This document shows positions 2,717 through 55,226 of a DNA stretch of 64,000 nt, in pieces (positions within the stretch are counted from its first letter, which is position 1; every line of letters begins with the position of its first letter). Under the pieces are notes generated by a model that was given only the letters and a program-made list of their open reading frames with translations, was not told where the DNA came from and did no database searches. Made by a program: the position numbers and the translations under genes. The stretch is from Gekko japonicus (taxonomy: Eukaryota), in the NCBI RefSeq assembly GCF_001447785.1, contig NW_015161518.1, positions 4,408 through 68,407 on the forward strand. The letters run 5' to 3'.

Positions 2717-3590
2717 GAGCACTTTTCAACGTCCCTAATGGTACTGCAAATTCGAGCTTAAGACAAGAAGTAGGTTTATCTACTGTAACATTGAATATTT
2801 GGATACAGAGGAGTAATTATTGGGTTAAGTCCCATCTGAATCCGGTGGGACTTATTCCTGATCTTTTGTCATCAATACCATATCCCCAATGGGCTCTTAG
2901 AGTAGTAGATAAATTGAAACTAATTGGATTAGATCCTGAAAATTTGTTAGAAGGAGGTCTGCAGTATGCAAAGAACCTAATACACCAAAGATTTAAGGAT
3001 ATTGAAGCACAAAACGACTATGCAGCCCTGCCTTCCTATTATAAGAGATTAAAGATGGGACCAGGTTTAAATGCTGCATCTTACCTTGGGCTCATAAAAA
3101 ACCCTAACTATAGATGGGCATTTACTAGAGCACGGCTCGATGTTTTACCCTCAGCAGTACTTTATGGTAGATATACCCGGACCCCCATGCATCAGAGAAT
3201 TTGCTCCTGTTTGTTAGAACAGGTGGAGTCTGCCTCCCATATAATACTTCATTGCCCCTTGTATGATGAAGAGAGACAGCAGTTGCTGACACCCCTTCTC
3301 TCACGTTTTAACCCCCTGGCTCATTATCTTACATATGATGAGGATTGTTTGATGAAGTTTTTATTGGCCGATACTTATGATTCTGTCACACGCAATGTTG
3401 CTAAATATTGTCATTTGGTAATCAAAAAGTACAGAATGTATTTTAACTGGAGCCATTAATGATGGAATTGACTGGTTTGGTATTTTAGTAATTAAGGCTG
3501 TAAGGATCCTATGTTGTAGATTCTGTGCTGTACTATTTTGGTCTATTTTGCTGGTCTTATGACTGTTCTTAATAAACTAACTTACTTACT
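2717..3590 (+). mobile_element. 5'-truncated non-LTR retrotransposon (RTE-X-like), ORF2 C-terminus plus 3'UTR
   Basis: ORF 2695-3459 has a C-terminal CCHC-type motif (RICSC...ESASHIILHCPLY). AATAAA is followed by a (CTTA)n tail. 14-bp TSD TACATGGTGGTGCA at 2703-2716 and 3591-3604. The clade assignment is from motif resemblance only. Confidence 0.75.
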
Positions 3591-4764: not shown

Positions 4765-6348
4765 TCAGCACTCGTAGTCACTTAGATATGTTGGTGCTCG
4801 GCGCACCCGCTGAGACCTACGTAGCTGTGCAGGCTCAGGACACAATTCAGCTTGGGGGGCCCTGCTTGACTCATGGTTGTCAGAGTCAGGTATGTCGCCT
4901 TCTGGGTCTGGGGTTGCAGCCCCGAAGGTAGGGGTCTGCCCTACTTCGGGGACAGTACTGGACAACGCAGTACTCACCTCCCTGGTTGGAGGTTGGGGTC
5001 GGTCCTCTGGTTTGGGAGATGCAGCTGGCTGGGAGTCTAGGCTTTCCTTCTCCCACTGCTGCCTAAGCTGGTCTACGTGGCGTCGCCACTTGCGTCCATT
5101 TACAAGCTCAACCACATACATGCGTGAACCAATCACCTCCCCCACTATGGCTGGAAGCCATGAATGACCCTCTGCATAGTCCCTTGCAAACACGTTGTTT
5201 CCTTTTTCGTAAGTGTGAACTTTTTCAAGTGCAATCTGCTGCTGGGGCCTCAGATCGTTAAGATCCAGGTGCAGGCGATCTAAGAGCGTGGTAAGGCAAC
5301 GCCCCATCAGAAGCTTGGCCGGGCTACGGCCTGTGGAAGAGCAAGGGGTAATGTGCTGGCGCAAGAGGAACGAGGCCAGTTTTACCCCCCAATCGCCCTG
5401 CATTAGTTTTCCTAGGGCTTCTTTGGTCGTGCTGACCATTGTCTCAACTTGACTGTTAGAGGCCGGGTGAAAAGGAGCCGACGTCAGGTGCCTAATCCCG
5501 TTGTCGGTTAGGAACTGAGCGAACTCCCTAGAGGTGAACTGCGTGTCGTTGTCACTCACCAACACGTCCGGTAGCCCATGGATGGAGAACAACCGGCATA
5601 GGACATTGATGACAGCGATCGAAGAAGTAGTGTGCATGTGAGCAACCTCATGCCACTTCGAATGCGCATCAACAACTAAGAGAAACATTTGTCCCTGAAC
5701 AGGCCCCGCAAAACCCATGTGAAGCCTGGACCATGGCTTCCCTGCAGATTCCCATTTCTGAGGCATAGTGGTAGGAGGCTCAGGCCTGTCCTGTTGACAG
5801 GGCATACACACTCTCACCCACTCTTCGATATCGGCGTCTAAGCCGGGCCACCAAACATATACCCGTGCCAGCGCCTTCATATGAACCATCCTGGGATGGC
5901 CTTCGTGGAGGGATTCCAGGACCTTCTTTCTGAGTTTCCCTGGCATGACTACCCGGTTCCCCCAAAGTACGCAACCCTTTGAGACGGATAACTCATTTTG
6001 GCGCGCACGGAACGGTTTGAACTCCGGCTCCACAGTCCCTGCCGGCCACCCCCTCCACACCCAGTTTAAAACGCAGGCAAGTACATTGTCCTTAGCTGTC
6101 GCAGCAGCAATGTCCATGGAGGAGACTGGGACTTGAGATAGTTCATTGATGGCTAGCACCATGCTAGCTGGAGCAGGGTCCAAGTCCTGGCCAGGTAGAG
6201 GGCAGCAGCTGAGGGCATCCGTGTGTCCATTCGCCTTGCCCGGCCGGTGTTCAAAGTCATAATCATATGCAGTGAGGAAAATCGCCCACCGCAACATTTG
6301 AGGGGACAGGATATTTGGGGTTTGCTGGTCAGGGGCAAAGATTCCCAA
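4765..6348 (-). pseudogene. Gypsy pol: RNase H end plus integrase (HHCC, degenerate DDE)
   Basis: HEGHP...YVWWPG...CMPC zinc finger, PWSRLHMGFAGP (first catalytic D lost), VSDND, GPY/F-like C-terminus. Confidence 0.9.
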
Positions 6349-7564
6349 TAGTCACTAAAAGAAACTTCCACCCATACAAGAAATCATGGAATTTCTTTAC
6401 CGCTGATACCAGTGCTAACCCCTCCTTATCAATTTGAGCATAGTTCTTTTCCGCTGCAGATAACGATTTGGAGTAGAATGCAATTGGGGCTTCACTGCCG
6501 TCTGGCATTAAGTGGCTAAGGACCGCCTCCACCCCAAACAGAGAAGCATCAGCTGCGAGCACTAGCAGCTTCTGCTCGTCATAATGCGTCAACACTGCAT
6601 TAGACAACAGCAAAGCTTTAACGCCGTTAAACGCCCACTCGTGTTCAGGGCCCCATTTCCATTTTGTGTCCTTGTGAAGGAGCGCATGTAAAGGTGCTGC
6701 CACTGACACTTTGTGTGGCAGAAAAGCATGGTAGAAATGTAATAGTCCCAAAAAGGACTGGAGCTCTTTTTTGTTGAGGGGTCATGGGGCACTCTTAATA
6801 GCCGCCACTTTGTCCTCTGTGGGGTGGACACCACTTTCATCGATTCGGAACCCCAAAAACTCCACACTCAGGACCCCCACAAGGCACTTTGACTGCTTTA
6901 CCTTCAGGTGTTCAGACTTAAATCGCTCCAGCATTGTCCTTACTTGTTCCATCAGCTCTTTTTCTGATCTCGCTGCAATCAGTACATCATCAAAGTACAG
7001 AACAGTGTCTTTGGACAAACATTGATTGCGAGTGTGGTTCCCGCCACAACCGGCGCATGCTGGGCTGGTTGTAGGCTTCACTCTGGTCCGTTTGTTGGCT
7101 CCCGCCTTCACGGCGTAGACGTCCTCATAAGCGTCATGGGCCTCGTTGCCGGAAGCTTGGTGGTGCACGCGCTGCTCTGTGGACGCCAACCACTGTCGGA
7201 CCTCTTTGGTGGACTTGTCGGCTGCCTCCATGGCGCCGGCCTGGGTGTAGGTGACAGCCCAAGTCAAGGTGGTTCGGGCGAACAAACGCTGTTGTAGCCG
7301 TTTGTCCCTCATGCCGCATACCAGCCAATCTCGGAGGGCCTCCTCGATGTATGCGAAGTTGCAGGGTCGGGCAGCCTTGTGCAATGCTGCCACATACTCG
7401 GCCACCGACTTATTGGCTGCCTGACTTATTTTATAAAAAGCGTGCCGGCAGGCAATCTCGGAAGGCTGAGGTGAGAAGTGAGTTTTCAGCTTCTCGATCA
7501 AGTCCTTGAATGGCACCATCTTGATGTCCACTGGCACAACCAGCGACCGGGCAATGTCGAACAC
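6329..7564 (-). pseudogene. Gypsy gag fused in frame to RT C-half/RNase H (protease and RT N-half missing)
   Basis: Gag (ALRDWLVCG, CAGCGGNH knuckle) runs directly into LYFDDVLI. One stop at 6782-6784, then the same frame continues into LAADAS...NYAQIDKEGLA. Confidence 0.9.
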
Positions 7565-9544
7565 GCTCTTGCCACAAGAGCTCAGGAGGGTTGCCCGCTT
7601 CTTAGCTTCGGTTGTGATGTCGTTCGCCTCGAGGTGAACTCAAACCGCGTCAGGTAAGTGTCCCAGTTCTCGGTTGTGGGTTCGAATGCCTCGAACTTCT
7701 GGCTATTGCAGGCGCTTCCACCTTATCGGGTGGTGCATGCGGCTGATCAGCCATGGCGCAATGCTCGCTGTTGTCCGTCGTAGGATTGTTTTAAGCGGGG
7801 CTGCCTACCCGCCTTAATATTCCATTCTCGTTGCCAATTGTTAAGTCGGTTACTTAACAAAGAGTCAGAGAGTGATTTCAGCAAAAGATCAGCTTTATTC
7901 AGCAACTCGTAACTCAACTCCAAACAGATCAACTCGAACAGCCAGAACAGCTTTTACATTGCAGCTGTTCTGCTTTTAAACTCTCCTGGCTAATGTAGCC
8001 ACGCCTACTATAGCTTCACATGGTGTTTCAATAGGGTGATTCACATACAGTTTTGTCAGATTGAATACACCACACTAGTAGCTGCCTTCTGTTTAAAAAA
8101 AGTCCAGAAAAAAGATGATGGAACTCCAGGTAATGTGCAGTTCCAGCCACATTTAGTAGATCCACGTTGTGAACCCCTAATATGATTCAAAAGCTTAAAA
8201 ATAGATAAGAATTTTTCTCTTTATTGGAGAGGTTAATTATTATAGAAACAAAGTCTTAATTTATCTTTCCTATAATGTCTGTGCACCTGGGGGGGGGGAA
8301 GGCTGTTTTGATTTACTTGGAAAGTCAGTCCTTTCTCTCAGTAAATGCCTCATAAGCTGAAATAAATTTTAATTGCAGATTTAAGATATGTAAAAAAGAA
8401 GAAGAAAAGAGAACATCCAGACAATTTAATGATACCCATCTGGAATAAATAAGTCTTATTTGACTGCTTACTTCAGTAGTATGGATAATCTAAAAAAAGG
8501 GGGGGGAGCGTAAAAAAGAAAGTAGGAATTCTAGCTGGTTTCCAGCCCAGTGACTTTGAGACCAAGGACTTAACAGCTGTAGCAACATTAATACACATCA
8601 TGGTTATGAAGGTGACTTATCTGAAACAGATATAGCTCTGCCCAGAATGGCTATGCCTGATGAGCCTGTTCACTAATGATCAGTGAGTTACAGCACTGAA
8701 GCTGATGAGTCTGGGACTGATTTTGGGAAGGATCCATGAATGCACAAACTCAGCGGAATCCGTCTTACATAAATTGATGATGAAAACTGAACTTGCTGGG
8801 GTTTTTTAGGGCAACTTTTTATTTGGGCAACCGTGCTTCCCTTTGTTAGTTTGGGCCTGCTTAAAAGATCTACCATGGTGATCACAGTCAACCAAGCAAG
8901 TAGTGTTGCCCGGCAGAAGCCATACAGCAAATAGATTTTTAACTTTGCCTCACAGCAGACAATAGATGGAGATAAGTTTCAGAGACCCAGTAAGAAAAGG
9001 GATGGGAAATAACATTTAATGGCTTTAAATTGGTTTTTTTTAAAAAAGATCTTATGTTTTAAGATAATTAATTGTGGTTACACTTTGTATACCATATAAT
9101 AAAACTGTATCAATTCACAGCAAACAGAATGTGTAACTTTGCTATTTATACTTAGTACATGGGGCCATGTGACTGGAACAATAACTCAGTTTGTGGAACC
9201 AAGGTGTTGGTCAAACAGAGCGATCAGCAGTCCTGAGTAAATAGTAACATGCAATCTGAAACAAAATTCGAAGGTACCAGTCGCAAATATTGTAAGGCCT
9301 TTAACTCTTAGTCCTAGTCTCACCAATCTCTTACTCCAGTTATTGATCTGGCCTTCTGGATCTCTCAGGATAAATGGCTATTTCTGTTTGTGGTCACAGT
9401 CTTAGAAGGCTTTCAAAGTGGATTGGACAAATTCATGATTATATGCCAAATAGCTAAATTATACCTCCATGTACAGAGGTAGTGTATATATGAACACAAG
9501 TTGCTGGAGAGCTAATGTTGGACAAAGGTTACTTTAAAACCCTG

Positions 9545-19920: not shown

Positions 19921-22900
19921 TTAAAAACGTATCCAGGGGATATAAGCAGCCTTAGATGGAATTATGTCCTTCTCTGACATATATTGTAGCACAGAAAACC
20001 ACACTGCAACAAATCGCTCATAAGCCTTTGTTGTATCTACTAATGTAGCCTGAGTGACCTGTGTCAGCTTCTCTAAAATAAATAGATCCCAAATTTTATC
20101 ATGCCATGTTTGTATCAGGGGAGGAGAACTGGCTTTCCATCCAGCCGCTATGGTTAAACGAGCTGCAGCCAGAAGTTTAGATATAAGATCTTTCTGAGCC
20201 CTAGTAGCCATTACTTCCTCCATCATATCAAAAAGCACTAATTTTGGACAAACAGGTAAGTTTAATGATTTAATATCACTTATTTTCCCTAGAACCTCTT
20301 CCCAAAATGAATGAATGACAGGACATTCCCACCAACAGTGAAAATACAAGCCTGTGTGCACATTTTTTCCAACACTGTGAGCTTAAAGCCGGACTTATCT
20401 TGTGCAATTTCTCTGGTGTGAAGTACCATCGGGTAATCAATTTAAAAGACTGCAAGTGGACATTAAAATTCCTTGAACGATTAGCAGACGAGTTCCTGAT
20501 GTCAGTCCACATTTGTTCAGAGATCTCCACCTGTAAGTCCTCTTGCCACCTGAATTGATGTTTCAGCATCGTTCGGTTCTCCATTTCAAGTAGCACCTTA
20601 CATAAAGCCGCCATTAATCCTTTAGATGAGTTTGTAAATGTACGCAGAATGACTTCGAACCCTGAGTAGCGTCTCTCAAAGGTGCGATTAGATGCCAAAA
20701 GTTCAGTTAAATTTTTTAGCTGTAAATAACTATGCCAAGAGAAGCACACCCCGGCTTGTTCCTCAAAGGACACTTTGTCTCGGATTTTTCCATGTGACAC
20801 CAGATCAGACAAACGAGAAAAACCTGCTCGCTTCCAGTCACCAAAGTCTTCTGGCCCATGTGCTGCCGGAAACCACGGCTGATTTATGAAAGTAGAAAGT
20901 GGCGAGATGTCTTGTATCTGCTGTTTCTTTCTGTGATCCCATACCTTCAACATTAAAGACAACCAAGGATTCTCCCGACAGGTTTTCAGTCGACGAGCTA
21001 GTAACATCCAACAAACTTACTGCAGGTTATAAGGGGCGGCATAGCACTGCTCCATGCGACACCATAAGGGTGGTGTTTCCCTTTGGGCTTGTACCACTGC
21101 CGTGAGGATGGCAGCTTGATAATAGATCCGAAGGAGAGAAAAGTCCAATCCTCCCAGATGGGCTGGTTTCGTCAATATGTTCACATTAATCCGAGATTTT
21201 TTCCCTTCCCATAGGAAGGATTGCAGAAACCTTTACCACTGCTGAAGTGCCTTATTCAGAATAAATATCGCACGTATTCAGAAGAGGAACAAAAACTTGG
21301 GCAAAATAAAGCTCTTTATCAGATGGAGCCTGTCAGGCAACGAGAAATTAAGAGCATCCCAGTCCTTAACTTGCACCTTAATGGAATCATAAAGCTTGTC
21401 ATAATTATGGTGCATTAGATCTTTGAGGTCTATTGGGAATTTGACTCCTAAATGTCGCCATGACCCTGTAATCCACTTGTAAGGAGAGAGTTCCATTATT
21501 TGCCTCTTCAGCTGGTCAGGCACCAATACCGGGTATAGTTCCAATTTTGTTGGATTGATTCGCAGACCAGATGCTTTCCCAAACAAGGACAAGATATGTT
21601 CTATATGAGGCAAAGAATGAGTTGGATTGGAAATGTAAAGGGTTAGGTCATCCACGTATAGGTTGACCTTATGCTCATGTCCTCCCATGTTGATCCCCGA
21701 AAAGTTTATGCAATGCCGCAGTTGTTCTGCCAGCGGCTCTATCACCAGTGCAAAAAGTAGGGGAGACAACGGACAACCTTGTCGTGTTCCTCTTGTGGGG
21801 TAGAAAGGATAAGAGAAACAACCATTCACACGCACCTTTGAGGTAGGCTTCGCATATAATGCCTCCATGGCTTTTAAGAAGTTGCCCCGAAAGCCCAAAT
21901 CCCATTTGTGTCAAAGTCGCGCTCATAAAGGGTATTTCCACTGAGTCAAAAGCTTTGGTGAAATCCAACGCCAGGATTACCAATTCAATCTTTCTTTTCC
22001 GGCCAAATAAAATGATATTAAAAGTCCTCCTAACATTTTCTGGTAATTGTCGTTTCGGGATAAAACCAGTTTCATCTTCCTTGACATAACTGGCAATGAA
22101 AGATTTAAGTCTATTGGCTAAGATTGAGGTAAAAAGTTTTGCATCTTGATTAAGTAATGCAATAGGCCGGTAAGACGAGGGATCTGTGGTGTCCTTGTTG
22201 TCTTTTTGCAGCACCAAAATATTGGATTCTGTCCACGATGGAGGGATTTTGCCCAAGACCATCGCCTCATTACATGTATCTAACAGATGTTTTGCTATTG
22301 AAGAATGGAAAGTTTTATAGAATTTTGACAGTATCCCATTCGGGTCAGTAGATATATTTGTCTTTGATGCTTTAACAGCATCCATAAGTTCCTGCAGAGA
22401 GATTGGCTGCTCCATGAGAGATGCGTGTTCTTCTGAAAGACACTTGGAAAATTGTGAAGTGGCCAGGAACGAGTTGATGTCTTCCACCTTCGGTTTCTCT
22501 GATAGATAGACATTATCAAAAAAATCTGCAAGGGAGTCAGCTATTTCCTTCGATGCAAATCGTGAAGAACCATCAGATCCTGTCAGAGAACCTATGAAGG
22601 AGGCCTTTCTTCTGTTGTTCACCCTCCATTTAAGTAGTCGGATATTTTTAGAAGATTTGATCCACATCCATCGTTTAAGGAATAAACGGTTCTTCTGAAT
22701 TATATTAACATCTAACACCTCTAAGGCCTTACGTTCTGCCAACAGCTTTTGAAAAATCTTCTTCCCACCTGATCTTTTATGTTCCATTTCTAAGCTCTTT
22801 ATCTGCAGTAATAAATCAGATCTAACCCTTTCTTTTTCGTTCCTTAGATGCGCCGTTATTGCGATTATGGAGCCTCTCATTACAGCTTTCATTGAGTCCC

Positions 22901-23766
22901 AGAGGACCAAGGTAGAAATTTCTGGGGTAGCGTTCTCCTTAAAGACGTTTTCAATATCCTTTGTCAATGAATCACGCACCGTTTCTTTCAATAAAATGTT
23001 TCTATCCATCGTCCAGCTTCTGTCCTTCTTGAACTAACCTCTGTATTCATTGAGCAATCAAGCCACGCATGATCTGTTAAATAACGTGGGTTGATACTCA
23101 TGGAAGAGATACACGGAAGAAGATTTTGTGACATCAGTATATAATCTATCCTTGAAAAGACATTATGTCTCACCGAAAAATAAGTATAATCCATTGTCGT
23201 AGGATTGAACAACCTCCAAGTGTCACAGAGCTCATATCTATCAAACAGCTTCGATAACTTTGTGATCGGCGAGCCCGTACTATGAGCACGTGTGGTATGC
23301 CATGATTGATCTAACCTACTATTAGCAATGAAGTTTAAATCAGCACCAATAATAATTTCCCCAGCAGAGAATCTCTTTAGAGCTGCGAATGTTTTATTTA
23401 AAAAATCGATTTGATTCTTGTTCGGAGCGTATATACTGGCCAAGGTCACCTGGTTCCCCTCCATCAGCCCATTGGTTCTATCTGCTTGGCTTGTAAAACA
23501 AAATTAATATTTTCCCCAAAAAATATCGCCACCCCTCTGCTTTTGGAATTTCCTAGGGCTTGAAATTGCAGAGGGTACAAAGCAGTTTTTAAAATTGGAT
23601 TAGAATCATCTTTAGCATGGGTTTCCTGGAAAAAAAGAACTCCTGGCCTTATTTTTTTAACGTGTTGTTGAACTTTTTTGCGTTTGATAGGATTGTTCAA
23701 TCCTCTAATATTAACAGAATTAATTTTTAGATCGATCACCATTGCGACTATCGGCTGTCCACCCAA
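19921..23766 (-). pseudogene. L1 ORF2 (APE endonuclease, RT, CCHC), frameshifted
   Basis: SVNIRGLN, QETH, IYAPN, SRIDY, TDHA, YRPIALLNQD, LDFTKAFDSV, GTRQGCPLSP, YVDD and CW..C...H.WWEC across six ORF pieces. Confidence 0.95.
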
Positions 23767-24697
23767 CTATATCTCTACAAATAAATAAGAGCTAATTTTG
23801 CACCAAAATCAGGTAGCAAAAATTGTGTTTCTAACCGTAACTTTTTAATTATTATTTTTTTTTTAAAGGAAACACTACACCAGAATCAGTAAAGATGAGT
23901 GAGTCAATTATTCTAAGTCAAAGCTGAGTCACACCACTGCCAGTTATAATGATATTCACAAACCATAAGGTTATATATGTTGTAATCTTAACCCCCCCCA
24001 ATGATAAATACCCCGCTCTGCCCTTAGCTAATCAGTTAGTCAGAATTAATTAAAACACAAAAATCAATTAACTAAATTAAACCCCTCCCCCCATCACCTC
24101 TCTCACTTCAAACAATTAATTAGTGGGCTAAAAGTTTGATTACCCCTCCTCCCCGCACCTAATACCTATATTCGAGGTTAACTTATTGCATAAAAATTTT
24201 TAATTCCCCCCCTTCCCTTTTGATACCCCCCCTGCCACCCCCTAAAAGAACCTTAAGGACAAGAAAAAATAGAAAAGAAAAAAGAAAACCAGAAACAAAT
24301 AATTAAATAGTAGAAGTGAAATAGAGAAAACACCCCAAAATCACCTTAAACACTAGTCAACAAAGCAACACACCTGATTTTGGATCAGCAGCAATAGCAA
24401 CAATTATGTAAAAAACGCATAAAAACTTTAGATCCTTTGAATCCCCCTAAGAGCTTTTACAGGAGATTACTTTTACTTGCCTGAATTTAAAACCGTCCGC
24501 CTTGGTCCGCTGAAACCGTGGATCTCACAGGAGGACGTCCGCGCAACTATCAATCTAAATTGAGACTAGAGGCTTCCGTATCCCCCCCCCCCAGGTTAAG
24601 CTTTAATACCTTAATAAAACTAGATTAAGAAACACCCTCTTAACATTAAAACACATATCCTAGGCAAGAGAAGGCAGCTAATGCAGAGCCGGCTGAG

Positions 24698-25674
24698 TTA
24701 ATCAGCGATATCTTCAGACTCTGAGTCCTCTGGTATGCGCACTGACAGCTTGTTATTCACCGCAGAGGGTTCTGGGGATTGTAGTTTTCTCTTTTGCGAG
24801 CGCCGATAGTCTGCCTCATCTGATAAACGGAGCGCATACAACAAGTCCAATCCCAAATCTTCATCTCCGGCCAGGTACGTTGAACTGTTGAACGCCACAA
24901 AAAGTCTACCATTGGGGAGCCATTTGTATTTGATGTTGGCCTCCCTTAGTTTCGCTGTCACCCCTTTCAAAGTATATCTAATGCGCAAAGCCTCTTGAGG
25001 CACATCCAGAAATACAGAGACACTGACATTTTTAAATAATAAATGCTCATTAAGCCTAGCCATTTCTTGGATCTTCTTCTTCACATTCCAGTTAATAAAT
25101 TGAACTATAATGTCTCTAGAGCCCTCACATTTTAGTCTTTTGAGTGGACCAACCCTAAAAGCTTTTAGTATGATCGGAGCCATGTCGTGGGTAGCAGACA
25201 GAAGGGAGTTCAGCCATGAAGTCATAAACATAATTACGTCTATACCTTCCTCCGCTCCCTCAGAGATCCCATGAAATTTCAGGTTTAACGCCTTCACCTG
25301 AGTTTCAAGCGAGAGGATCCGCTCTTTAGATTGGTCCTCAGAGACATGCAAGGCTCTAACCTCCTCTCAAAGTGCTGTCCCTATCTTTAGTGCTGAGTCT
25401 GCTGTTTTTGCTGTTTTTTGCCAAGAGGCTTGAATCACATTTAGTTGTTCTTTTATCGACTGGATCACCTCTGTCATTTGGGCACGAAGCCTCGTCTCAA
25501 GGTTATCCAACCTTGCCTCAAGTAATTCCGATAGCGCAGTATCATCTGCCATTGCACCTTTCCCGATCGTTGCGCTTCTCGGGTCTGTTTCAGCTCTTTA
25601 AACGCACACGCTTTAGCAGGAGATTTGGACATGGTCTTCGAAGAATTAGCGGGTGTTCCGCCATTTCCCCCCAT
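24698..25674 (-). pseudogene. L1 ORF1 (coiled coil, RRM, CTD), frameshifted
   Basis: NLKFHGISEGAE, RDIIVQF and KLREANIKYKW are L1 ORF1p-like motifs. Heptad-rich N-terminal piece at 25367-25552. Confidence 0.85.
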
Positions 25675-35694: not shown

Positions 35695-36652
35695 AAAGAT
35701 GGGCAAGTGGGCGTCAACATGGCAAATGGGGTTCAATGTGGCCAAGTGCAAGGTGATGCACATTGGAGCCAAAAATCCTAACTATAAATACACGTTGATG
35801 GGGTCTGAACTGGCAGAGACAGATCAAGAGAGAGATCTTGGAGTTGTAGTAGATAACTCACTGAAAATGTCGAGACAGTGTGTGACTGCAATAAAGAAGG
35901 CCAATGCTATGCTGGGGATTATTAGGAAGGGTATTGTAAACAGATCAGCCAATATCATAATGCCGCTATATAAATCAATGGTGCGACCTCATCTGGAATA
36001 CTGTGTGCAATTCTGGTCACCACACCTTAAAAAGGATATTATAGCTTTGGAAAAAGTGCAGAAAAGAGCAACTTGAATGATAAAAGGGTTGGAACACTTT
36101 CCATATGAGGAACGGTTAAGGCGCTTAGGGCTCTTTAGCTTGGAGAAACGACGACTGAGGGGTGACATGATTGAGGTTTATAAGATTATGCATGGGAAAG
36201 AGCAGGTAGAGAAAGAGGTACTTTTCTCCCTTTCTCACAATACAAGAACCCGTGGGCACTCCATGAAATTGCTGAGCGGTCGGGTTAGAACAGATAAAAG
36301 GAAGTACTTCTTCACCCAAAGAGGGATTAACACTTGGAATTCACTGCCACAGGAAATAGTGGCAGCTACAAGCATGGACGGCTTCAAAAGGGAATTAGAT
36401 AAGCATATGGAGCAGAGGTCCATCAGTGGCTATTAGCCACAAGGTATAGATAGGGACTCTGGGGCAAGTGATGCTCTGTCATCTTGGTGCTTGGGGGGGG
36501 GTCAACAGTGGGAGGGCTTCTAATGTCCTGGCCCCACTGGTGGACCTCCTGATGGCACTGGTATTTCTGGCCACTGTGGGATACAGAGTGTTGGACTGGA
36601 TGGCCCTTTGGCCTGATCCAACATTGGCATCTCTTATGTTCTTATGTTCTTA
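35695..36652 (+). mobile_element. 5'-truncated CR1 LINE inserted in L2
   Basis: WQMGFNVAKCKVMH...VRPHLEYCVQFW and a (TTCTTATG)n tail. Short GAGT duplication. Very similar to ~54270-55226. Confidence 0.95.
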
Positions 36653-36658
36653 TGAGTA

Positions 36659-36756
36659 CTTCTGTCCGGGGCACAACATTGCCTGGTGGTTCCAGGCCCC
36701 CGGGAGGTTCTGTACGGGGCACAACATTGCCTGGTGGTTCCAGGCCCCCGGGAGGT
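36659..36756 (+). repeat. ~48-bp tandem duplication within L2
   Basis: TTCTGT(C/A)CGGGGCACAACATTGCCTGGTGGTTCCAGGCCCCCGGGAGG occurs twice. Confidence 0.9.
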
Positions 36757-36784
36757 AAGTCTCGCTGTGACTAAGGCCAGATCC

Positions 36785-39120
36785 CTTTCTTTTTCTTTCT
36801 TTTTTTAATTTAATGTCAGATTAATACAAATACATAATCAAAGCTTCATTGGTAAGGAAACAAGCATTTAAAACAAAGCTCATCATGGTTTGGCCAACAT
36901 TTAAACAAACAGCAAAAACAGGTGTGGTGCACTCGAGACACAGAATGGCCACTTCAGCAGGGTTCTTAAAAAAAAAAAAAAAGGTGATCATGATTGGGAA
37001 ATGGACTTAGAAACACAGCAACAGAAACATCAGATTTCTCATTTGATTCATAAAAAATGGTAGGGGAGGGAATGGGGGCGGGGAAGGAAACCCCTTATCG
37101 GGTTTGAAATCTTTTGTTTTACAAAGAGTCCATATCTTTATAAGTCTCCCTTTAAGTCTCCCACATTCACAAACTGGCACAGTGGGTTGAAGCAAACAGG
37201 AAAAGAAATCAACGCAGGTTTTTATCACCGTAGAAAAAATAAATCCCCCTCGCCTTCGAAACGACTCGTGGCGCACAAGGAAGGGGACCGGGAACGCCTA
37301 TCAAAGCACTTGTGTATCCAGGCAGCGCACTTCTTTAACCACAAGGTCGATATTTATAATGGGGTTGAAGTATAAAGTCCAGTTTTTTAAGAGAAAAACC
37401 TAAGTATAACAGGATTGACTAGTCAATTGTGTCCTGGCTCCAGAGATCCCTCTGGGATGGTATTTCCCGGCATGGCATCCTCTGGAATTGAGCAGGCCAT
37501 CTCGATTTCTTCCACAAACTGTTCCTCCAAAACACATCCATTTACCCTCTTGAGGGAGCTCGTCACAGACGGAGTTTTGGCCTTTATTTGTCCATTTAAT
37601 TCTAATTGTATAGTTTTTGTTTGCTTCGCTGCGTCAGCTAATTCCTCCGCTAGGGATTTGGAATCCGCTATGGATGAAAGATGTTTATTAGGTGGGGAGT
37701 CTAATTCATAATCATCCTGTAGTAACTCTAGAGGGTCAGCTGACCTGTTTTTATTTTGATACAGTTTTCCCAAGTTGCCTGGGGAAGATGGACAAAGTAC
37801 ACAGTTGGTGCTGTGATTGATAGCCTGGGTTGATAGAGCCACTAAGTTCTCTATGGGCTCCTCTGTTTCCATGTCCTTGGAAAGTTCATGTGGAATGGTT
37901 GTTGTTTGCAGTTCACTTGGCTGGCTCTGTCTGATCTTAAATTGTTCCTGTGCCCCCAAAGAATGAGGGAACGTTTCAGGCTTTTTGTTTTGCAGAGGTG
38001 CCTGTTTCACAGTCCAAGGGGCTGGTAGCTTGGTGGTAGATTGTATAGATGTTTGGAGCTGAGAACACCTGGTTGAAGGATCAAGGTAAGCTGGCATAAC
38101 ATTTCCCAAGCTTGGTAAATCATTGCTGTTAAATGGAAGTGAACTCATTCTTTTTCTGCATAATGGGCGCATCATGTGATCTTTAAACACCCTTGTAACA
38201 TAAATTTGAAACCTTTGGAGATGCTCCCGCCTATTTAGAAGTTGAAGATAGAGTTCTCTCTGATTCAATGTTACAACCACCCTCCTATAAAACTGGTTGC
38301 TTGGGAGCCAGAAGCATTGTTTCAAATTCACCCTTGCAGAGTCTCTTGGCAGTAGCTGATTAAGTGAACTTTCCACTGCTCTCTTATTACCCCAATGGCC
38401 AAAGTTGATTCTTGAGTATCCTATGTTAAAAGCCAGCTAATTTTTTTGTAATACCCAGCAGTTCTTGCCGTGAGGGAAGAGAGGTTGAGAGTCTTCTGAT
38501 TCCTTAGTGTCTGTATTGTTTGTGGATTTCGCCAAGGTTAAATTTGTTAAACTAGAATGGGTGCACATCTCCTTCTTAAGATTTATCTCGTCTATTTTAA
38601 TATATAAATTAACCAGCGTTTCAGTAATAAGGGAGGTTTGTTTGAAGAGAATATTATCTTTACTTGCCTTTGCTGGGAGCTCATTTATACTCAGCTGTTC
38701 CTCAGAAGCCGCAGATGAAGTCTGCTGCTCTGCAGTGCTGTCTTGGATAGAAGTAAGAGTAGTTTATATCAGATGAGCATATCTGCTAGTAGGCAGCTGC
38801 TGGTTTAAATCCTTGTCATCCTTGTTTAAGGTAATCCCTTCCTCCTTGTCCTCCAGAAAATGTTCCATTCTCATTTGCTTACCGGCCTTGTGGGCTGAAT
38901 ATTCTGGGGAGGGTCGGCGTCTTCGGTTCTTTGCTCCCATTATAAAACTTCCTGATGTGAAGAGTTTCTCAAAGCTGCCTCCCACGGAAGCTCAAGGTGA
39001 AAGTGCCAACCCGTAACTATAAAAATAAAAGCTACTTAAAAAGTCAATAAAATAAAATCAGCCGGGAGCCTCATGTAACACATCTTACTCCTCTGCCGCC
39101 ATATTGGGTCTCCTTCTCCG
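36785..39120 (-). mobile_element. Retrocopy: LINE-like leader + ORF1-like frame + mRNA-like 3'UTR + poly(A)
   Basis: TSD GGCCAGATCC(C/T)TTTC at 36775 and 39121. A-rich tail preceded by ATTAAA on the minus strand. Interrupts collinear L2 sequence. Confidence 0.85.
37423..38940 (-). pseudogene. ~505-codon LINE ORF1-like reading frame with two in-frame stops
   Basis: ORF-track pieces 38764-38985 and 37423-38376 are in one frame. Manual translation from MGAKNRRRRPSP shows stops only at 38764-38766 and 38437-38439. Basic N-terminus, short coiled-coil-like segment, central RRVVVTL...IYVTRVFKD domain, low-complexity tail. ORF1 identity is an inference. Confidence 0.6.
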
Positions 39121-40603
39121 GGCCAGATCCTTTTCAGTGGTGGCCCCTACCTGGTAGAATGAGCTCCCGGAGGAGATCAGGGCCCTGTAGGACCTTTTGC
39201 AGTTCCGCAGGGCCTGTAAGACGGAGCTCTTCCACCAGGCATTCACATAGGGGCCGCCACTACCACCGCCACCAATGCGGTGGACAACATCGGGGTTAAG
39301 GATGGCCCGGGAAAATCCGCCACAATTTCTGCGTGACTGATACCACTGGATTTACCTGGTTAGGATAGGCTATAGGTTAACATCATCCCTGGAGAACTGT
39401 CTGTTTACCATCTGGCACGTATCCAGAGACCATCTTGTTTTTAAATTGAGTACAACTGTTATTAATGTCATTAATGTTTTTATTGTTTTTATCTGTTTTA
39501 TATGAGCTTTGCCCCTTGTAAGCCGCCCTGAGCCCGCTCTGCAGGGAGGGCGGGGTAAAAATATCAATCAATCAATAAATGGGGTAAGATCTCCTCAAGG
39601 CCTACTTACAGGAGAAAAGAGGGTGGGGAGGGCAGCTGTTAGGAGGGGCCACTCAGAGCCAAGATGCAGATGCAGAGCCGAAATTGCATCAGGTGACCAG
39701 TAAGATCAATGGATGGCAGCAAATTAGCATGTAAATGCAGGAATTAACAAAAAGATATGAGAATTAAGCCAGAGTCCAGCAGTCCCCCCCAAGACTGCTA
39801 AATTACAGATACCATCAATGATGCCCTAGCATTTAGGTGCATAGCTGAACATTGTCAATGCAGATCAGTTGTTCCTAACAGCTTTTACCATATCATTCTC
39901 ATAATCAAAGTGTGTGCTCAAAATGTGGGTCTTCTCTTTGTCTTTTAGTGCGTGCTTATAGATGAAGCTGAGAGTCTACTCCACATTGGTGGTTATTAAA
40001 CACACCAGGCGGTACACTAAACCAAAAAGTGTGATCTCGTGTATGTGCTCTTATTTGTAGACAAACATTATTTTCTATGTTTGAGGCTGTTGGTTCTGAT
40101 GCAGGGCTTGTGTGCATATGCCATTAGAATGAGGCTATATTTCTGGCGGCCCTAGAGGCCTCATTAAATTGTGCTGTGTGGTGTCACATTTCAAGCCTTG
40201 GCAATTTCTGTTGTCCCTTGTTTAGAATTAGATGTGCAGTTGCCTTAACTATGACCCAGAAGCAGTTTTGATATTACACGAAAACAATGCCCCAAATTAC
40301 TATCAAATTTCAAATAATTATAGGTCCACAGCACATTTTGTCCAAATATTTAGACAGGCCAAATAATCCTTTCCCCCATCATTTTATCTATTTATTTGGT
40401 TTAGTTCTTAAGCTGAAAAATGTGAGGATGCCTACCTATTCAGTCACTATATATAAAATTTCATCAGTGAACAAATGGTACCAACCAGTAGAGAATATAA
40501 TCCCATATAATCAACACTATCTATATTTGTGCCAGCCACCAAGCAGGAGGAGTATCATGTCTGTATAGTTTTAATTTAATGTCTGGCTAAAACACACACA
40601 CAA

Positions 40604-41117: not shown

Positions 41118-43160
41118 CTACGGCCTCCCCCCTGAAGCCCTTGGAGGCGAGATGGCCAGAAGAGGCATTGGGGGCAGCAGTGCCGGCGTTCCCGGTGTCT
41201 CTGGAGGAGGTGACTTGGGTTCGACCAAGGAAAGAGGCCGGGGCTTGGCCGCCGGTGGTTGGGTCTGGGGTGAGGTCTCCGGGGCCTCGGCCATGTCCCA
41301 GTCCTCGGGATCCAATGGCATAGTCTGGCGGTGTAGCTGGTCAATGTGCCGGTGTAGAATGTGCCCATCTTCACACGAGACCTCATACGATCTTGGGCCC
41401 TTAACTTGTATGACTTGTGTCTGGATCCAGGCTGGTCCCTGGGTGTAGTTCTGTGCATACCCGGGATCCTCCGGGAAGAAACCCCTGGCTGCCTCATGCG
41501 TCTCCATGCCTGGTGCCTCTGCCAAGGCCCGGTCGGGGTGCAAGCGATCCAACCGGGTTGCCAGGCAGCGACCTAGAAGTAGCTCTGCGGGACTGCGCCC
41601 CGTAGTGGTGTGGGGCGTCGTTCGCTGGCCGAAAAGGAAAGCCACCAGTTTATAATCCCAGTCCGGTGAGTCCAAGCGGCGGAGAGCGTCCTTTGTGGTT
41701 CTGACCATGCGCTCGGCCTGGCCGTTGGTGGCAAGGTGGAACGTGGCGGATACCATAGTAACTCGTGAATTCCTGGAACTCCGCGGACGTGAATGCCGTC
41801 CCGTTGTCTGTGACCAGCATGTCTCAGATTCCTTGGGCGCTGAAGATCTGCCACATTGCCCAGATGGCTGCCTTAGAGGAGGTGGAGGGCACAGGAACTA
41901 CCTCCAGCCACTTGCTGAAGGAATCCACCAGGATAAAGAAAAGTTGCCCCTGGAACGGTCCCACAAAGTCCAAGTGTAACTGGGACCAGGGGCAGTGGGA
42001 AGATTCCCAGGCCCATTCTGGGGCTTGGGGAGGCTCGGGCCGGGACGCTTGGCAAGGTTGACACCACTTCACCATGTCCTCTATGTCCCGGTCCATCCCT
42101 GGCCACCAGACGTAGCTCCGGGCTAAGGCTTTCATGTGCACCACCCCGGGGTGCGCTTCGTGAAGGGCGGTGAGGACCCGCTCCCGTAGGGGCTTTGGAA
42201 TGACCACCCTACTTCCCCACATGACACAGCCCCTGTGGACAGACAGCTCATCCTTCCAAGACGCAAAGGGCATTACGTCAGGGTCTCCTTTGGCTGCGGG
42301 CCACCCCCTCACCACCCAGTCCAAGACCCAGCAAAGTACCTTGTCCTTGGAGGTGCCACGAGCCACCTCTGCGACGTAGACTGGCCGATCCGGAAGGGAC
42401 TCCAGGAGAGCCATCTGGTGGGTGGGAGCAGGATCCGGGGCACAGACTGGCAGCGGCAGGTGGCTCAGGGCATCCGCATGGCCCATCGCCTTGCCAGGGT
42501 GATGGACAAGAGCATAGAGTACCCCGAAAGGAAAATCCCGGGTGCGACCGAGACTCCAAACTGGAGGCGGTGAACCTTGAACGCCCCCCTATGAGTTCTG
42601 ATTGTTTGGGCTTCGGCCATGGCAGCATCAACCGGCAGTTGTTGATATGCCTGGGCCAAGTCCAATTTGCTGAAGACTCGGCCCCCCGCCAAAGCCGGCA
42701 ACACATGGCTCACCACTGGCACCGGATAAGCGTGTGCCTGCAGAGCCTTGTTTAGCGTGCATTTATAATCTGCACAAATGCGCACATCCCTGTTGGGCTT
42801 CACTGGGGTGACTATGGGGGTCTCCCACCGTGCCGACGCAACTGGTCCCAGAATCCCTTTTTCCACTAAGTGATCTAGCTTGGCCTCGATTTCAGGTTTC
42901 TTCCTAGTGGCGGCAGCCTGGCCTTGACGCGAATGGGCCACACCGCCGGGTCGAGATTCAGAGAGATGGGGGGCCCAGAGAAGCGTCCCAGGGTGCCATC
43001 AAAAATGCAGGGAAATTCTGCACACACCGCACCAAAATACCGTGACCTGGTGGATTCCATTGAGAAAGAGTCCCAGGGCCTCAAACCAAGAGAGTCCCCG
43101 CAGGCTGGAAAGAGGCCTATTCACCACCAGCAGGTCTAGGGTGCCATTAAAGTCTTGGAA
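41118..43160 (-). pseudogene. Gypsy pol: RT N-half joined to integrase (RT C-half and RNase H deleted), frameshifted
   Basis: WETPIV, RICADYK, FSKLDLAQAYQQ, RLQFGVSVAPGIF, then directly LSGY...HADALS, HEAHPG...WWPG...CQPC, HLDFVGP, NGQAERMV. Confidence 0.9.
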
Positions 43161-44240
43161 TTAAACCCGGAACTTGCCCCAGCCCAGCACCACCACGGGG
43201 TTCTTATTGAAGTCCCTTAATCGGAAACCCCGTGGCTTCTGAAGGGGCAGGCCCCCCTTCGGACACAGCATGCGGAGCGTATCCATGGAGATAATGGAGT
43301 AGGTCGACCCTGTGTCGATCTCCATGCTGCAGGGGTATCCCTCTATAAGAACCGTGATATGCATCTTGTTGGGGCCATCGGGGGGCAAGTTACAGACCTG
43401 GTGTTGCGGGAAGTAGGCCAATATGGTGTGGAGGTCGATGGGCGACTCTGGCATGGTCTGGTGGGCGGACGACTTCTGGCATTGTCCCTTGGAGCGGCAA
43501 ATCCGGGAAATGTGCCCCGATTTTTTGTAGGTCCGGCAGACTGCATTTTTGAAACAGCATGACCGGCGCTCGTGACCCTCTTCGCAGCTGGCGCATGGGG
43601 CAGAGGCGGTCGAAGAGGCTTTGTCTGCGTTGGCGGACGGCTGAGACGATGGATGACAGACCTGGTGCACCTCGTCCGAGGCATCGGAGCCAGCTGTCAC
43701 TTGTGTGTGGTGGACTGCCTTGGTGTGGCGGTCTTGGTGGGCCTTGTCGTATGTAGTGGCTTCCCGGATTACCTTCTCCAGGTCCAGGTTGTCCTGGTTT
43801 ACCAGCTTCCTCTGAAGCTTCAGCTCTCTTAGTCCCACAAGGAACTGGTTGAAGAGAGTTTCAGCTAGGTTTGAGAAGGAGCACCTGGTCATGCCCTGCC
43901 GCAGAGCTGCCAGGAAATCTGAGGCGGTCTCGTCGGGGCCCTGGACCTTCGTGAAAAAGTCCAGGTGCTCCATAAACTTTGTTGGTTTGGGAGCCAGGTG
44001 ATTGGTCAGCACCTTGACCAAAGAGCTGTATGACTCGTCTTTGGTCAGCTTGGGCGCTATTAAGTCCTTAAGCAGGAGATGGGTCTCCATCCCACAGTGG
44101 CGCAGCAGGTACGCCTTTTTTATACCTGGATCCACCACTCCGTGGATGGTGAAGTGGCTCTTGAGAGTTTCCAGCCAGGTTTCCCACTGCAAGGGTTGGG
44201 AGATGTCGAAAACTGGGAGGCTCTCTGATGCGGCAGCCAT
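43161..44240 (-). pseudogene. Gypsy gag-protease
   Basis: MAAASESLPVFD..., two Cys/His knuckles (CASCEEGH; CRTYKKSGHISRIC), aspartic protease motif MEIDTGSTYS. Confidence 0.9.
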
Positions 44241-45205
44241 CTTGCGGGTGCCACGTGGAAGCGAGCAGCATAGATGGTGGAGCGGTGCGGTGCTGCTCTC
44301 GGGGTCAGCGGCATGATGCTTGGAGCTCGGGAGCGGTGCGGTGAGCTGGCGGCGTGGCAAATTCGGTGCGGCAGCTCACTGCGATGTCCAGAACGTGGTC
44401 TCTGTTCAGAGGGAGATTAATCCCACCTTCGTCGCCAGTGAAAAGTATGCAGACGGAGAGTGATTTCAGCAAAGCGTACTGGATACATTACAATTGTATA
44501 TATAGGAGTGGTTTGTTAACTTAGCATGCAAAATAGTGAGGACACATTTTCTTTTTTTAACAGTTCCTGGTTGTCATCTGTTTTGGTTCAACTGGGGGGA
44601 AAAACAACATAGGTAATAAATATGTTAGAACTGGAGACTGATGTGCCCTAATTTGTGAGAATCCTGTCCTTAAACCCCATCCATCTCCTTTCAAGCATGG
44701 AGCTGAATTTTACAGCATCTTGGGTGTGTAAGTTAAGTAACAGTAAGTTAGGATCATTTTTAGATCCAAGCACATTTTCTTTCTTTCTTTCTTTCTTTTT
44801 TTTTTGAAGCCCCCAAAGGGGGATTTTTTTTTTTTAACAACTACAAAAACTACTACTGTTGTTGATCTGTTGTTTATCTAAATGCTTGTCTTGCTTGGAT
44901 TGGTATAGCGGGGAAGTGATGAACCTCTAAAGATGGGGAGGGGAACAAATGAGCACACACGTTTGCAATAAAGCATATCTGGTGCAGGCAATATACCTCA
45001 GAAGAGCAGAAGCAAGAGGCAAAATTTACAGTCACTGCACATTTTCAAGTTCCAGATAAATTGGCAGAAATGGGCGTTTTTTTGATAAGCTCTGCCGAGA
45101 AGAAAATAGCATAGCTTTTGCAGATAGAAAGTTTTGCCTCACCAGTGATTCAAAGTGTTTTCAAAAGGTGGACAAGAGTGACCCTGTAAACAAAATATAC
45201 TTGGG

Positions 45206-52625: not shown

Positions 52626-52783
52626 CAAATTGGCAAAAAAACCCTTCCAAGAGTACCTAACAAACCTTATAATAATAGAGAGGCACCTGTGAAATCAGTT
52701 ATACAGCAGTATTCAAATGGATTTCTGAAGTCCAGGGGCCGCCAAGTATAAGGGTTCTGAGCAGAGTGACGTTAGCATTATTT

Positions 52784-55226
52784 GACCTGGTGAGAGATGT
52801 AAAAGTGATTGCACCGCTTGGAAACAGCGATCATAATGTTGTTGAGTTCATCATTTGTACAAATAGAGAATTGGCCAAAAAGACTCACACAGCCATTTTT
52901 AACTTTAAAAGGGGTAATTTCTCTGATATGAGGGGACACGTGGGGAGGAAACTGAAAGGAAAAGTAGAAAGGGTCAAAACAATTGGGGAAGCTTGGGATC
53001 TATTTAAAACTACGATCCTAGAAGCTCAAAAAATATATATTCCGCAGATTAGGAAAGGCACAAAAAGGTATAGGAAAAAGCCTGCATGGTTAACAAACAG
53101 AGTAATGGAGGCTGTAAAAAGTAAAAAGAATTCCTTTAAGCAGTGGAAAGCTAGTCACAGTGAGGCTGATAAAACGGAACACAGGTTATGGCAAATAAAA
53201 TGCAAGTTTGAGGTCAGGCAGGCAAAAAGGGAATATGAGGAGCATATAGCAAAAAACGTAAAAACCAACAATAAAACTTTCTTCAAATACATTAGAAACA
53301 GGAAACCAGCCAGGGAGGCAGTGGGGCCCTTGGACGACCAAGGGGTAAAAGGAGTATTGAAGGATGATAGGGAAATGGCTGAGAAGCTAAATGCATTTTT
53401 TGCCTCCGTCTTCACTGTGGAAGATGAGAAGTGCTTGCCCACTCCAGAACCACTGATTTCAGGAGGGGTGTTGAAAGACCTGAGTCAGATTGAGGTGACG
53501 AGAGAGGAGGTCCTAAAACTGATAGACAACTTAAAAACTGAAAAATCACCAGGCCCAGATGGCATACATCCGAGAGTTCTGAAAGAACTCAAATGTGAAC
53601 TTGTAGATCTCCTGACAAAGATATGTAATCTTTCCTTAAAATCTGCCTCCATTCCTGAGGATTGGAAGGTAGCTAATGTCACTCCCATCTTTAAAAAGGG
53701 TTCCAGAGGAGATCCGGGAAATTACAGGCCAGTCAGTCTGACGTCGATACCGGGTAAATTGGTGGAAACCATTATTAAGGAAAGAATTAGTAGGCACATA
53801 GATGAACAAAACCTATTGAGGCAGACTCAGCACGGTTTCTGTAAGGGAAGATCTTGTCTCACTAACCTGTTAGTGTTCTTTGAGGGGGTGAACAAACATG
53901 TGGACAAGGGGGATCCAATAGATATTATTTACCTTGACTTCCAGAAAGCTTTTGATAAAGTTCCTCATCAAAGGCTCCTAAGTAAGCTCAAAAATCATGG
54001 GATAGAAGGACAAGTCCTTTTATGGATCAAAAACTGGCTAGTTCATAGAAAACAGAGAGTGAGTGTAGGTGGGCAATTTTCTCAGTGGAGGGTGGTAAGC
54101 AGTGGGGTACCGCAGGGATCAGTACTTGGTCCACTGCTTTTTAACTTGTTCATTAATGATTTGGAGATGGGAGTAAGCAGTGAAGTGGCTAAATTTGCGG
54201 ATGATACAAAGTTGTTCAGGGTGGTGAAAACCAGTGAGGATTGTGAGGCACTCCAAGGGGATCTGTCAAGGATGGGCGAGTGGGCGTCAACATGGCAAAT
54301 GGGGTTCAATGTGGCCAAGTGCAAGGTGATGCACATTGGAGCCAAAAATCCTAAATATAAATACACATTGATGGGGTCTGAACTGGCAGAGACTGAGCAA
54401 GAGAGAGATCTTGGAGTTGTAGTGGATAACTCACTGAAAATGTCGAGACAGTGTGTGACTGCAATAAAGAAGGCCAATGCTATGCTGGGGATTATTAGGA
54501 AGGGTATTGAAAACAGATCAGCCAATATAATAATGCCCCTATATAAATCAATGGTGAGACCTCATTTGGAATACTGTGTGCAGTTCTGGGCACCACACCT
54601 TAAAAAGGATATTATAGCTTTGGAAAAAGTGCAGAAAAGGGCAACTCGAATGATAAAAGGGTTGGAACACTTTCCCTATGAGGAAAGGTTAAAGCGCTTA
54701 GGGCTCTTTAGCTTGGAGAAAAGACGACTGAGGGGTGACATGATCGAGGTTTATAAGATTATGCATGGGAAAGAGCAGGTAAAGAAAGAGGTACTTTTCT
54801 CCCTTTCTCACAATACAAGAACTCGTGGGCACTCCATGAAACTGCAGAGCGGTCGGGTTAGAACGGATAAAAGGAAGTACTTCTTCACCCAAAGAGTGAT
54901 TAACACATGAAATTCACTGCCACAGGAAGTGGTGGGTGCTACAAGCATGGACGGCTTCAAAAGGGAATTAGATAAGCATATGGAGCAGAGGTCCATCAGT
55001 GGCTATTAGCCACAAGGTATAGCTAGGGGCTCTGGGGCAAGTTATGCTCTGTCTTCTTGGTGCTTGGGGGGGGGTCAACAGTGGGAGGGCTTCTAATGTC
55101 CTGGCCCCACTGCTGGACCTCCTGATGGCACTGGTATTTCTGGCCACTGTGTGACACAGAGTGTTGGACTGGATGGGCCTTTGGCCTGATCCAACATTGG
55201 CGTCTCTTATGTTCTTATGTTCTTAT
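52784..55226 (+). mobile_element. Young 5'-truncated CR1 LINE with long open ORF2 remnant
   Basis: ~710 open codons: GNSDH (EN end), KSPGPDG, NYRPVSLTS, QHGF, YLDFQKAFD, GVPQGSVLGP, FADD. Premature TGA at 54908-54910, where the sister copy has TGG. (TTCTTATG)n tail. Confidence 0.97.

Follow-up and report, generated by a model that had tools for sequence, protein, structure and literature searches.

A minus-strand insertion in the window, the whole stretch of 64,000 nucleotides of Gekko japonicus DNA analysed here, was found to be a chimera in which the head of a non-L1 LINE is joined to the tail of a BFAR mRNA. The element is a chimera that became a multi-copy, ORF1-only family, and the insertion is the sole full-length copy of this family that was found and is dead. 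We regard it as probable that the insertion is a dead copy of a family which was born once by template switching of a reverse transcriptase (RT) and was then re-copied in trans by L1. An earlier reading of the same DNA from its letters (the sequence-only reading) had set an ORF1-only non-autonomous family against a chimera of a LINE and a host mRNA as alternatives. Both hold, where the chimera describes the origin and the family describes the later history. The parts of the insertion are listed in Table 1.

Table 1. Parts of the chimeric insertion, in window coordinates
Feature	Position	Strand	Basis
5' copy of the target site duplication (TSD), 15 bp	39121..39135	(-)	sequence reading
LINE 5' leader, with 14 extra nt ahead of the start motif common to relatives	38941..39120	(-)	
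LINE ORF1, 505 codons, 2 stops, 3 in-frame deletions	37423..38940	(-)	
First ~10 codons of LINE ORF2, stopping just short of the WNVNG endonuclease motif of relatives	37391..37422	(-)	
Junction linker TTAAAAA	37384..37390	(-)	8 junction-spanning copies compared
BFAR last-exon remnant: 26 C-terminal codons and stop, joined mid-exon	37301..37383	(-)	
BFAR 3'UTR, with family-wide gaps against the gene, up to ATTAAA	36809..37300	(-)	
A-rich tail	36790..36808	(-)	
3' copy of the TSD	36775..36789	(-)	sequence reading

The boundaries of the insertion agree with those proposed from the letters. The two TSD copies (39135-39121 and 36789-36775) are identical at 14 of 15 positions and the ATTAAA signal at 36814-36809 is followed directly by the A-rich tail. 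The insertion does lie within a repeat, which we take to be an L2, as its two flanks form a single frame that the insertion splits, and the empty-site joints (36758/36765 to 39120) were spanned by RNA reads from other copies of this target repeat. The insertion is not unique in the genome, since related sequence was observed elsewhere and its tail was found at 25 contigs among the best candidates scored. A 47-bp tandem duplication is present in the target repeat just outside the 3' TSD (36701-36760) and a LINE 3' end, presumably CR1-like, adjoins the insertion (36077-36436, plus strand). Other remnants in the window include two of LTR retrotransposon gag/pol, presumably Gypsy-like (4765-7639 on the minus strand, and 41118-44375), ORF1/ORF2 remnants that we take to be L1-like (20276-25366, minus strand) and a 743-codon ORF2 frame that is presumably CR1-like (52679-54910, plus strand).

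The long frame is a LINE ORF1 as had been proposed. It consists of 505 codons and a stop, is interrupted at codons 59 and 168 and has no frameshift, and a relative at C10594 carries the same ORF upstream of an endonuclease (EN) and RT. With 37423-39120 as the query, 33 matches from 23 candidates were found in the genome among the best candidates scored. The C10594 match extends from the leader to 37407, with 85% identity over 39106-38575. Its ORF1 is a stop-free frame of 537 codons that is 91% identical to the insertion ORF1 over 1518 aligned nucleotides, where the insertion shows deletions of 15, 63 and 18 nt, all in frame. Downstream of this ORF1, C10594 encodes an EN (PF03372, E 4e-9) and the C-terminal half of an RT (PF00078, E 9e-17), and it ends in an (ATT)n tail with an 11-bp TSD. 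The matches of C10107 and C5581 to the window end at 37391, and the similarity of C5581 to C10594 carries on into ORF2. At 39106-39095 the leader has a variant of CAAGATGGCGG, the motif with which C10594, C4476, C61 and C5581 begin; this start motif in common with four relatives bears out the LINE-like leader, which is presumed to be an internal promoter.

The donor LINE is not an L1. A related ORF2 piece reached 62 bits with human L1 ORF2p and 71 bits with an R2 protein, compared with 213 bits for an in-genome L1 piece, which covers a different part of ORF2, and the donor ends in (ATT)n. The donor may be an RTE-X element, judging by its motifs, its two ORFs and its (ATT)n tail; the names of its homologues indicated no clade. 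The donor family is young, since eight more copies match C10594 at 99-100% identity across the RT half, and TSDs of 11-15 bp were found in seven of eleven donor copies. At least 110 genome matches to the RRM region of ORF1 (25-100% identity, L067-L096) show that the donor clade holds many ORF1 lineages. An ORF2 C-terminal frame at 2686-3459 of the window (plus strand) resembles this clade by eye.

Several additional rearrangements were noticed around related ORF1 sequences. In C10594 (L041:4651-5346), a foreign insert of ~696 nt, repetitive in part, takes the place of the middle of ORF2, and the stop-free ORF1 and the (ATT)n tail are retained. The same replacement occurs in C1978 and C1704 at 99% identity, and the three copies form a second ORF2-dead derivative of the donor LINE. 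C6152 (L152:4667-4868) is a lone internal ORF1 fragment of 202 nt, 95% identical, with a ~46-nt direct repeat on its flanks. A gag-like frame, presumably retroviral, lies 3' of a related ORF1 at L113:4263-5318 (plus strand), and an element that we take to be DIRS-like lies 3' of another at L043:3720-8845. Sequencing run X7 contains a 1587-nt contig with ORF1 indels of the C10594 type.

The ~620 nt downstream of ORF1 had been read as an mRNA 3'UTR. They do derive from the end of a cellular mRNA, that of BFAR, but the first 32 nt are the start of the LINE ORF2, followed by a 7-nt linker and 26 BFAR codons. The UTR match at C5526 has a splice acceptor upstream, no A tail and more BFAR exons further upstream, and a 453-aa Gekko japonicus protein, named BFAR by its source, is matched by the last exon at 100% identity; C5526 is therefore the intron-containing BFAR gene. 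In the insertion, 24 of the 26 C-terminal residues are identical to this gene, and the nucleotide identity is 90% over 533 aligned columns. The 3' part of the insertion is thus the last BFAR codons, stop and 3'UTR in sense orientation. The LINE/BFAR junction is located 110 nt inside a query that begins at the last-exon acceptor and is not a splice site. RNA reads on the BFAR gene cover the segments missing from the copies and end just past the ATTAAA of the gene, which indicates that the family tail ends, after a 30-nt gap, at what is likely BFAR's own signal. The possibility that the UTR is the LINE's own 3' end was ruled out as the donor 3'UTR is unrelated, and introns were ruled out for the gaps by the missing GT-AG ends and by the gene reads that cover them. 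An old BFAR processed pseudogene with four exons joined (C12845:82197-82850, L066; 73-81% identical to the gene) is independent of the chimera.

A search of the genome with the UTR gave 39 matches on 27 contigs among the best candidates scored. Excluding the BFAR gene (C5526) and the old pseudogene (C12845), the family is found at 25 dispersed loci with variable 5' truncation, where C2784 contains two near-identical places with the same flanks. All eight copies that cross the junction have LINE sequence upstream and the same LINE/BFAR join, with the linker TTAAAAA identical or one letter off. In all eight, ORF2 stops after ~10 codons and neither EN nor RT is encoded. The ORF1-only non-autonomous family is borne out by this common junction; the chimeric origin also stands, but the unique junction expected of it does not. 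A BFAR last-exon query gave 11 matches, namely the gene, the old pseudogene (77%), eight that begin at the exact junction and one that begins 16 nt inside. Among these matches, the only ones to reach upstream of the junction point were the gene and the old pseudogene; a young direct retrocopy of BFAR was not found. The shorter copies were placed in the family not through the junction but through the gaps and the 3' end that they have in common.

TSDs of ~10-20 bp were observed at 16 of the 25 loci, where 14 have A-rich tails and two are tailless; no TSD was found at the other nine. The TSDs of the tailless copies (C6773 and C16294) begin with TA, like those of the donor LINE, and neither 3' end nor TSD was recovered for C2311 and C1751. 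Compared with the BFAR gene, gaps of 21, 64, 17 and 30 nt are common to all aligned copies that cover these sites; the first three come from a comparison of 19 of the 25 loci with the gene, and the 30-nt gap from a separate comparison of the 3' ends. In addition, the copies agree with one another but differ from the gene in 20 of 555 columns. A tree of 15 copies and the gene, with four short rows omitted, supports subfamily A (100), a three-copy clade (86) and the pairing of the window copy with C10132 (98), while the deep nodes of the main subfamily have supports of 18-67. Internal tandem duplications of 90-180 nt were seen within the copies at C6736 (L030), C508 (L031) and C16267 (L102). No description of a BFAR-LINE chimera family was found in the literature searched, and repeat libraries may list the family under an uninformative name.

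Subfamily A differs from the main subfamily at its 3' end. C16764 retains a 119-nt segment of the BFAR UTR that is absent from the main subfamily and C14642 retains its last few bases, so that the source of subfamily A keeps more BFAR gene sequence than the other copies. In C14642, C14580 and C16267, ~320 nt follow directly after the ATTAAA, with a poly(A) at the end where the copy is complete. This extension matches a common repeat at 78-86% identity, and a repeat of this type sits 3' of an L1 ORF2 at C1198 (E 3e-29). Of ten loci checked, four matched L1 ORF2, two of which also matched the extension. Compared directly with an in-genome L1 ORF2, the L1 C-terminal stub showed no link, which is instead made via C1198. 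In C16764 one 18-bp TSD surrounds the whole series from the end of ORF1 and the BFAR segment, through an assembly gap and a second L1, to the extension's last 89 nt and a poly(A); the link across the gap is given by the TSD and the scaffold order. Subfamily A is therefore a tripartite arrangement of LINE ORF1, BFAR and ~320 nt of an L1 3'UTR, and there is no A tract between its BFAR and L1 parts. C16764, C14642 and C14580 are identical in their shared columns, which marks the subfamily as young and its source as recently active. ATTAAATAA is common to the main subfamily and the subfamily A junction, which hints that the founder may have carried the L1 tail, though A/T-rich tails weaken this inference.

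We propose that an RT would have entered a BFAR mRNA close to the poly(A) signal, copied it and then jumped to a LINE RNA at the start of ORF2. It probably began on an L1 RNA first, which would yield the tripartite form, and the founding template switches would number one, or two if the L1 tail is original. The founder would have been transcribed from the LINE promoter in its leader since this was retained. With ORF2 and the donor (ATT)n tail lost, the chimera would need an RT able to use poly(A) RNAs. Later source copies would have shed further pieces, which in the main subfamily are the L1 tail and a UTR segment of 119 nt. The chimera RNA may perhaps be aided in cis by ORF1p. L1 is the likely agent in trans, because the copies lack the donor tail and mostly finish in A tracts; we infer this L1-type mobilisation rather than observe it, as the TSDs of the donor LINE are of similar length, and the A or G with which TSDs start is partly forced by the A tail. 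The co-oriented LINE and BFAR copies lie inside one TSD pair, and the available text of a lizard study describes template switches with L1, L2 and RTEX LINEs (PMC4476161). Against a firm origin, the best candidates scored in the 191,500 contigs included no source locus and no full-length copy whose ORF1 is unbroken, and the gaps relative to the BFAR gene are not polarisable.

A genomic origin, which we consider unlikely, would instead place a 5'-truncated BFAR retrocopy at the start of a LINE ORF2, or join a LINE and a BFAR pseudogene by deletion, with the LINE promoter reading into the BFAR poly(A) signal and the L1 tail of subfamily A arising by 3' transduction from a copy in L1. The linker fits such a nested insertion as it resembles an L1 target site, TT/AAAAA being the motif of the L1 endonuclease. 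One older processed pseudogene of BFAR exists, at C12845, and the four family-wide gaps suggest that the founder was long resident in the genome. However, ORF2 follows the tail at none of the 25 loci, the LINE sequence before the junction is not repeated at the 3' ends, and the BFAR and L1 parts of subfamily A adjoin with no A tract between them.

The same family might also be mobilised mainly by the ORF2 of the donor LINE, recruited with the help of the chimera ORF1p. The youth of the donor family, its similar TSDs and the two tailless copies primed at TA would agree with this, but the donor 3'UTR and (ATT)n tail are absent, A-rich tails end 14 of the 16 TSD-bearing copies and one subfamily bears an L1 3'UTR. 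Furthermore, LINEs are divided by stringent or relaxed 3' recognition, and in the accessible text of PMC3747384 and PMC4476161 non-L1 clades are described as needing their own tail. We judge this route to be quite improbable.

The ORF1 protein is predicted to combine a coiled coil with an RRM, a statement of fold class only. Pfam gave no match at the curated cut-off for three ORF pieces of the window and just a sub-threshold coiled-coil match for the stop-free C10594 ORF1; an L1-like ORF1 control also gave no ORF1 family match, and Pfam is therefore uninformative here. A structure model of C10594 ORF1 residues 90-310, built from a 16-row alignment and leaving the C-terminal part of ORF1 outside, has a helix at 8-64 followed by a beta-alpha-beta-beta-alpha-beta order (mean pLDDT 76.9), in agreement with the coiled-coil/RRM fold that was expected of a LINE ORF1. 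The top structural matches are nearly all RRMs, the best at Z 7.7 (rmsd 2.8, 76 aligned), with the human L1 ORF1p RRM at Z 6.8 (rmsd 3.1, 83 aligned) and a best Foldseek E of 2.7e-3; Z below 8 and this E value restrict the matches to fold class. The ESM Atlas gave unnamed clusters at 0.88-0.90, which is a lead only.

Substitutions in ORF1 were compared with a null that kept substitution type and CpG context; several tests were made and the p values are uncorrected. Changes private to one chimeric copy appear neutral (18 of 54 synonymous, 15.0 expected, p 0.18), whereas synonymous changes are in excess among those that every chimeric copy carries (16 of 30, 10.1 expected, p 0.01), though these may predate the fusion. 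For changes common to a subset of copies the result is borderline (5 of 9, 2.8 expected, p 0.055). Each of the three ORF1 deletions of the insertion is derived and keeps the frame, and one arose post-fusion. No stop interrupts 173 codons in C6773 and 113 codons in C16764, while C7908 has a 74-nt frameshifting deletion. These patterns faintly hint that source elements may have kept ORF1 open or under selection.

Three RNA runs, of which 3-12% of each was read, gave 2 of 2226, 12 of 1022 and 2 of 1016 reads at least 99% alike to the stretch, and no transcript of the insertion copy was demonstrated among them. The UTR reads carry the alleles of the BFAR gene and the ORF1 contig carries indels of the C10594 type. 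A search of sequencing runs listed no RNA run as carrying the sequence. Two further signals, a 368-nt contig of X7 that spans the junction with 29 differences and four reads with the family-type gap in X21 and X23, were rejected as proof of expression, X7 being only presumed to be RNA.

A domesticated host gene had also been suggested, and this is unsupported given the two stops, the neutral private changes, the lack of a demonstrated transcript and the fact that no intact ORF1-BFAR parent or source locus was found in the 191,500-contig assembly among the best candidates scored. That the copies are processed pseudogenes of a domesticated ORF1 gene with a BFAR-derived last exon is highly improbable, since the in-frame deletions, the two stop-free partial copies and the synonymous excess on shared branches are outweighed by the missing parent locus, the several subfamilies in place of one source, the scarcity of near-identical reads with UTR reads of BFAR type and, weakly, a search with a 337-aa ORF1 piece that found no homologues among proteins of 591-2000 aa.

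Several known systems resemble the gecko family in part. HAL1 (half-L1) of mammals is a non-autonomous element with ORF1p only, according to the available text of PMC5753468, which cites Smit 1999 and Bao and Jurka 2010. The gecko family is likewise ORF1-only, multi-copy and retrotransposed, but HAL1 derives from L1 whereas the gecko ORF1 donor is not an L1, the 3' part is traced to a host mRNA and one subfamily has an L1 3'UTR. Template-switch chimeras also consist of co-oriented RNA copies within one TSD pair and include tripartite forms (PMC2104539, in part); examples are the tripartite Magnaporthe chimera, the lizard U6 chimeras with L1, L2 and RTEX (PMC4476161, in part) and the mRNA-L1 chimeras. 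The last are, according to PMC13174262, nearly all separate events from 17 mRNAs, two of them with one common sequence. In what these sources describe the cellular RNA lies 5' of the LINE, whereas the gecko family has the opposite order, LINE first and mRNA last, and its subfamilies stem from the amplification of a single junction.

SVA_F/MAST2, gibbon PVA and LAVA are composite non-autonomous families, some with a host-gene piece, and L1 dependence has been shown for SVA (PMC5753468, in part). The gecko family shares the composite structure, the lack of autonomy and the host-gene capture; it differs in that it carries the leader and ORF1 of a LINE and none of the VNTR, Alu or HERV parts, its host piece is a 3' end, and 25 loci were found. 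The coding sequence of L1TD1 is also derived from a LINE ORF1 (PMC4161310, in part), but the gecko copies are retro-insertions scattered over the genome, their private changes are neutral and no intact expressed parent was found. The gecko family works like HAL1 and resembles the gene captures of SVA and PVA, and it belongs to neither.

More tentatively, and with some doubt, the family may be a cross-clade parasite, in which a non-L1 leader and ORF1 became independent of their own RT on gaining the end of a host mRNA together with an L1 3'UTR. It would use the L1 machinery, have several sources, keep ORF1 under purifying selection and include a tripartite source that was recently active. If this is true, the ORF1p of one clade would aid retrotransposition by the ORF2p of another.

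The reach of these findings is limited by the low copy number, and a host function is not shown. The chimeric family explains an excess of apparent BFAR retrocopies in this genome. It records the birth of a non-autonomous retroelement family for which all donors, the LINE head, the BFAR mRNA and the L1 tail, are identifiable in one genome. The family therefore offers a test case for why ORF1-only elements retain ORF1 and for whether a LINE can change its RT partner by a swap of its 3' end.
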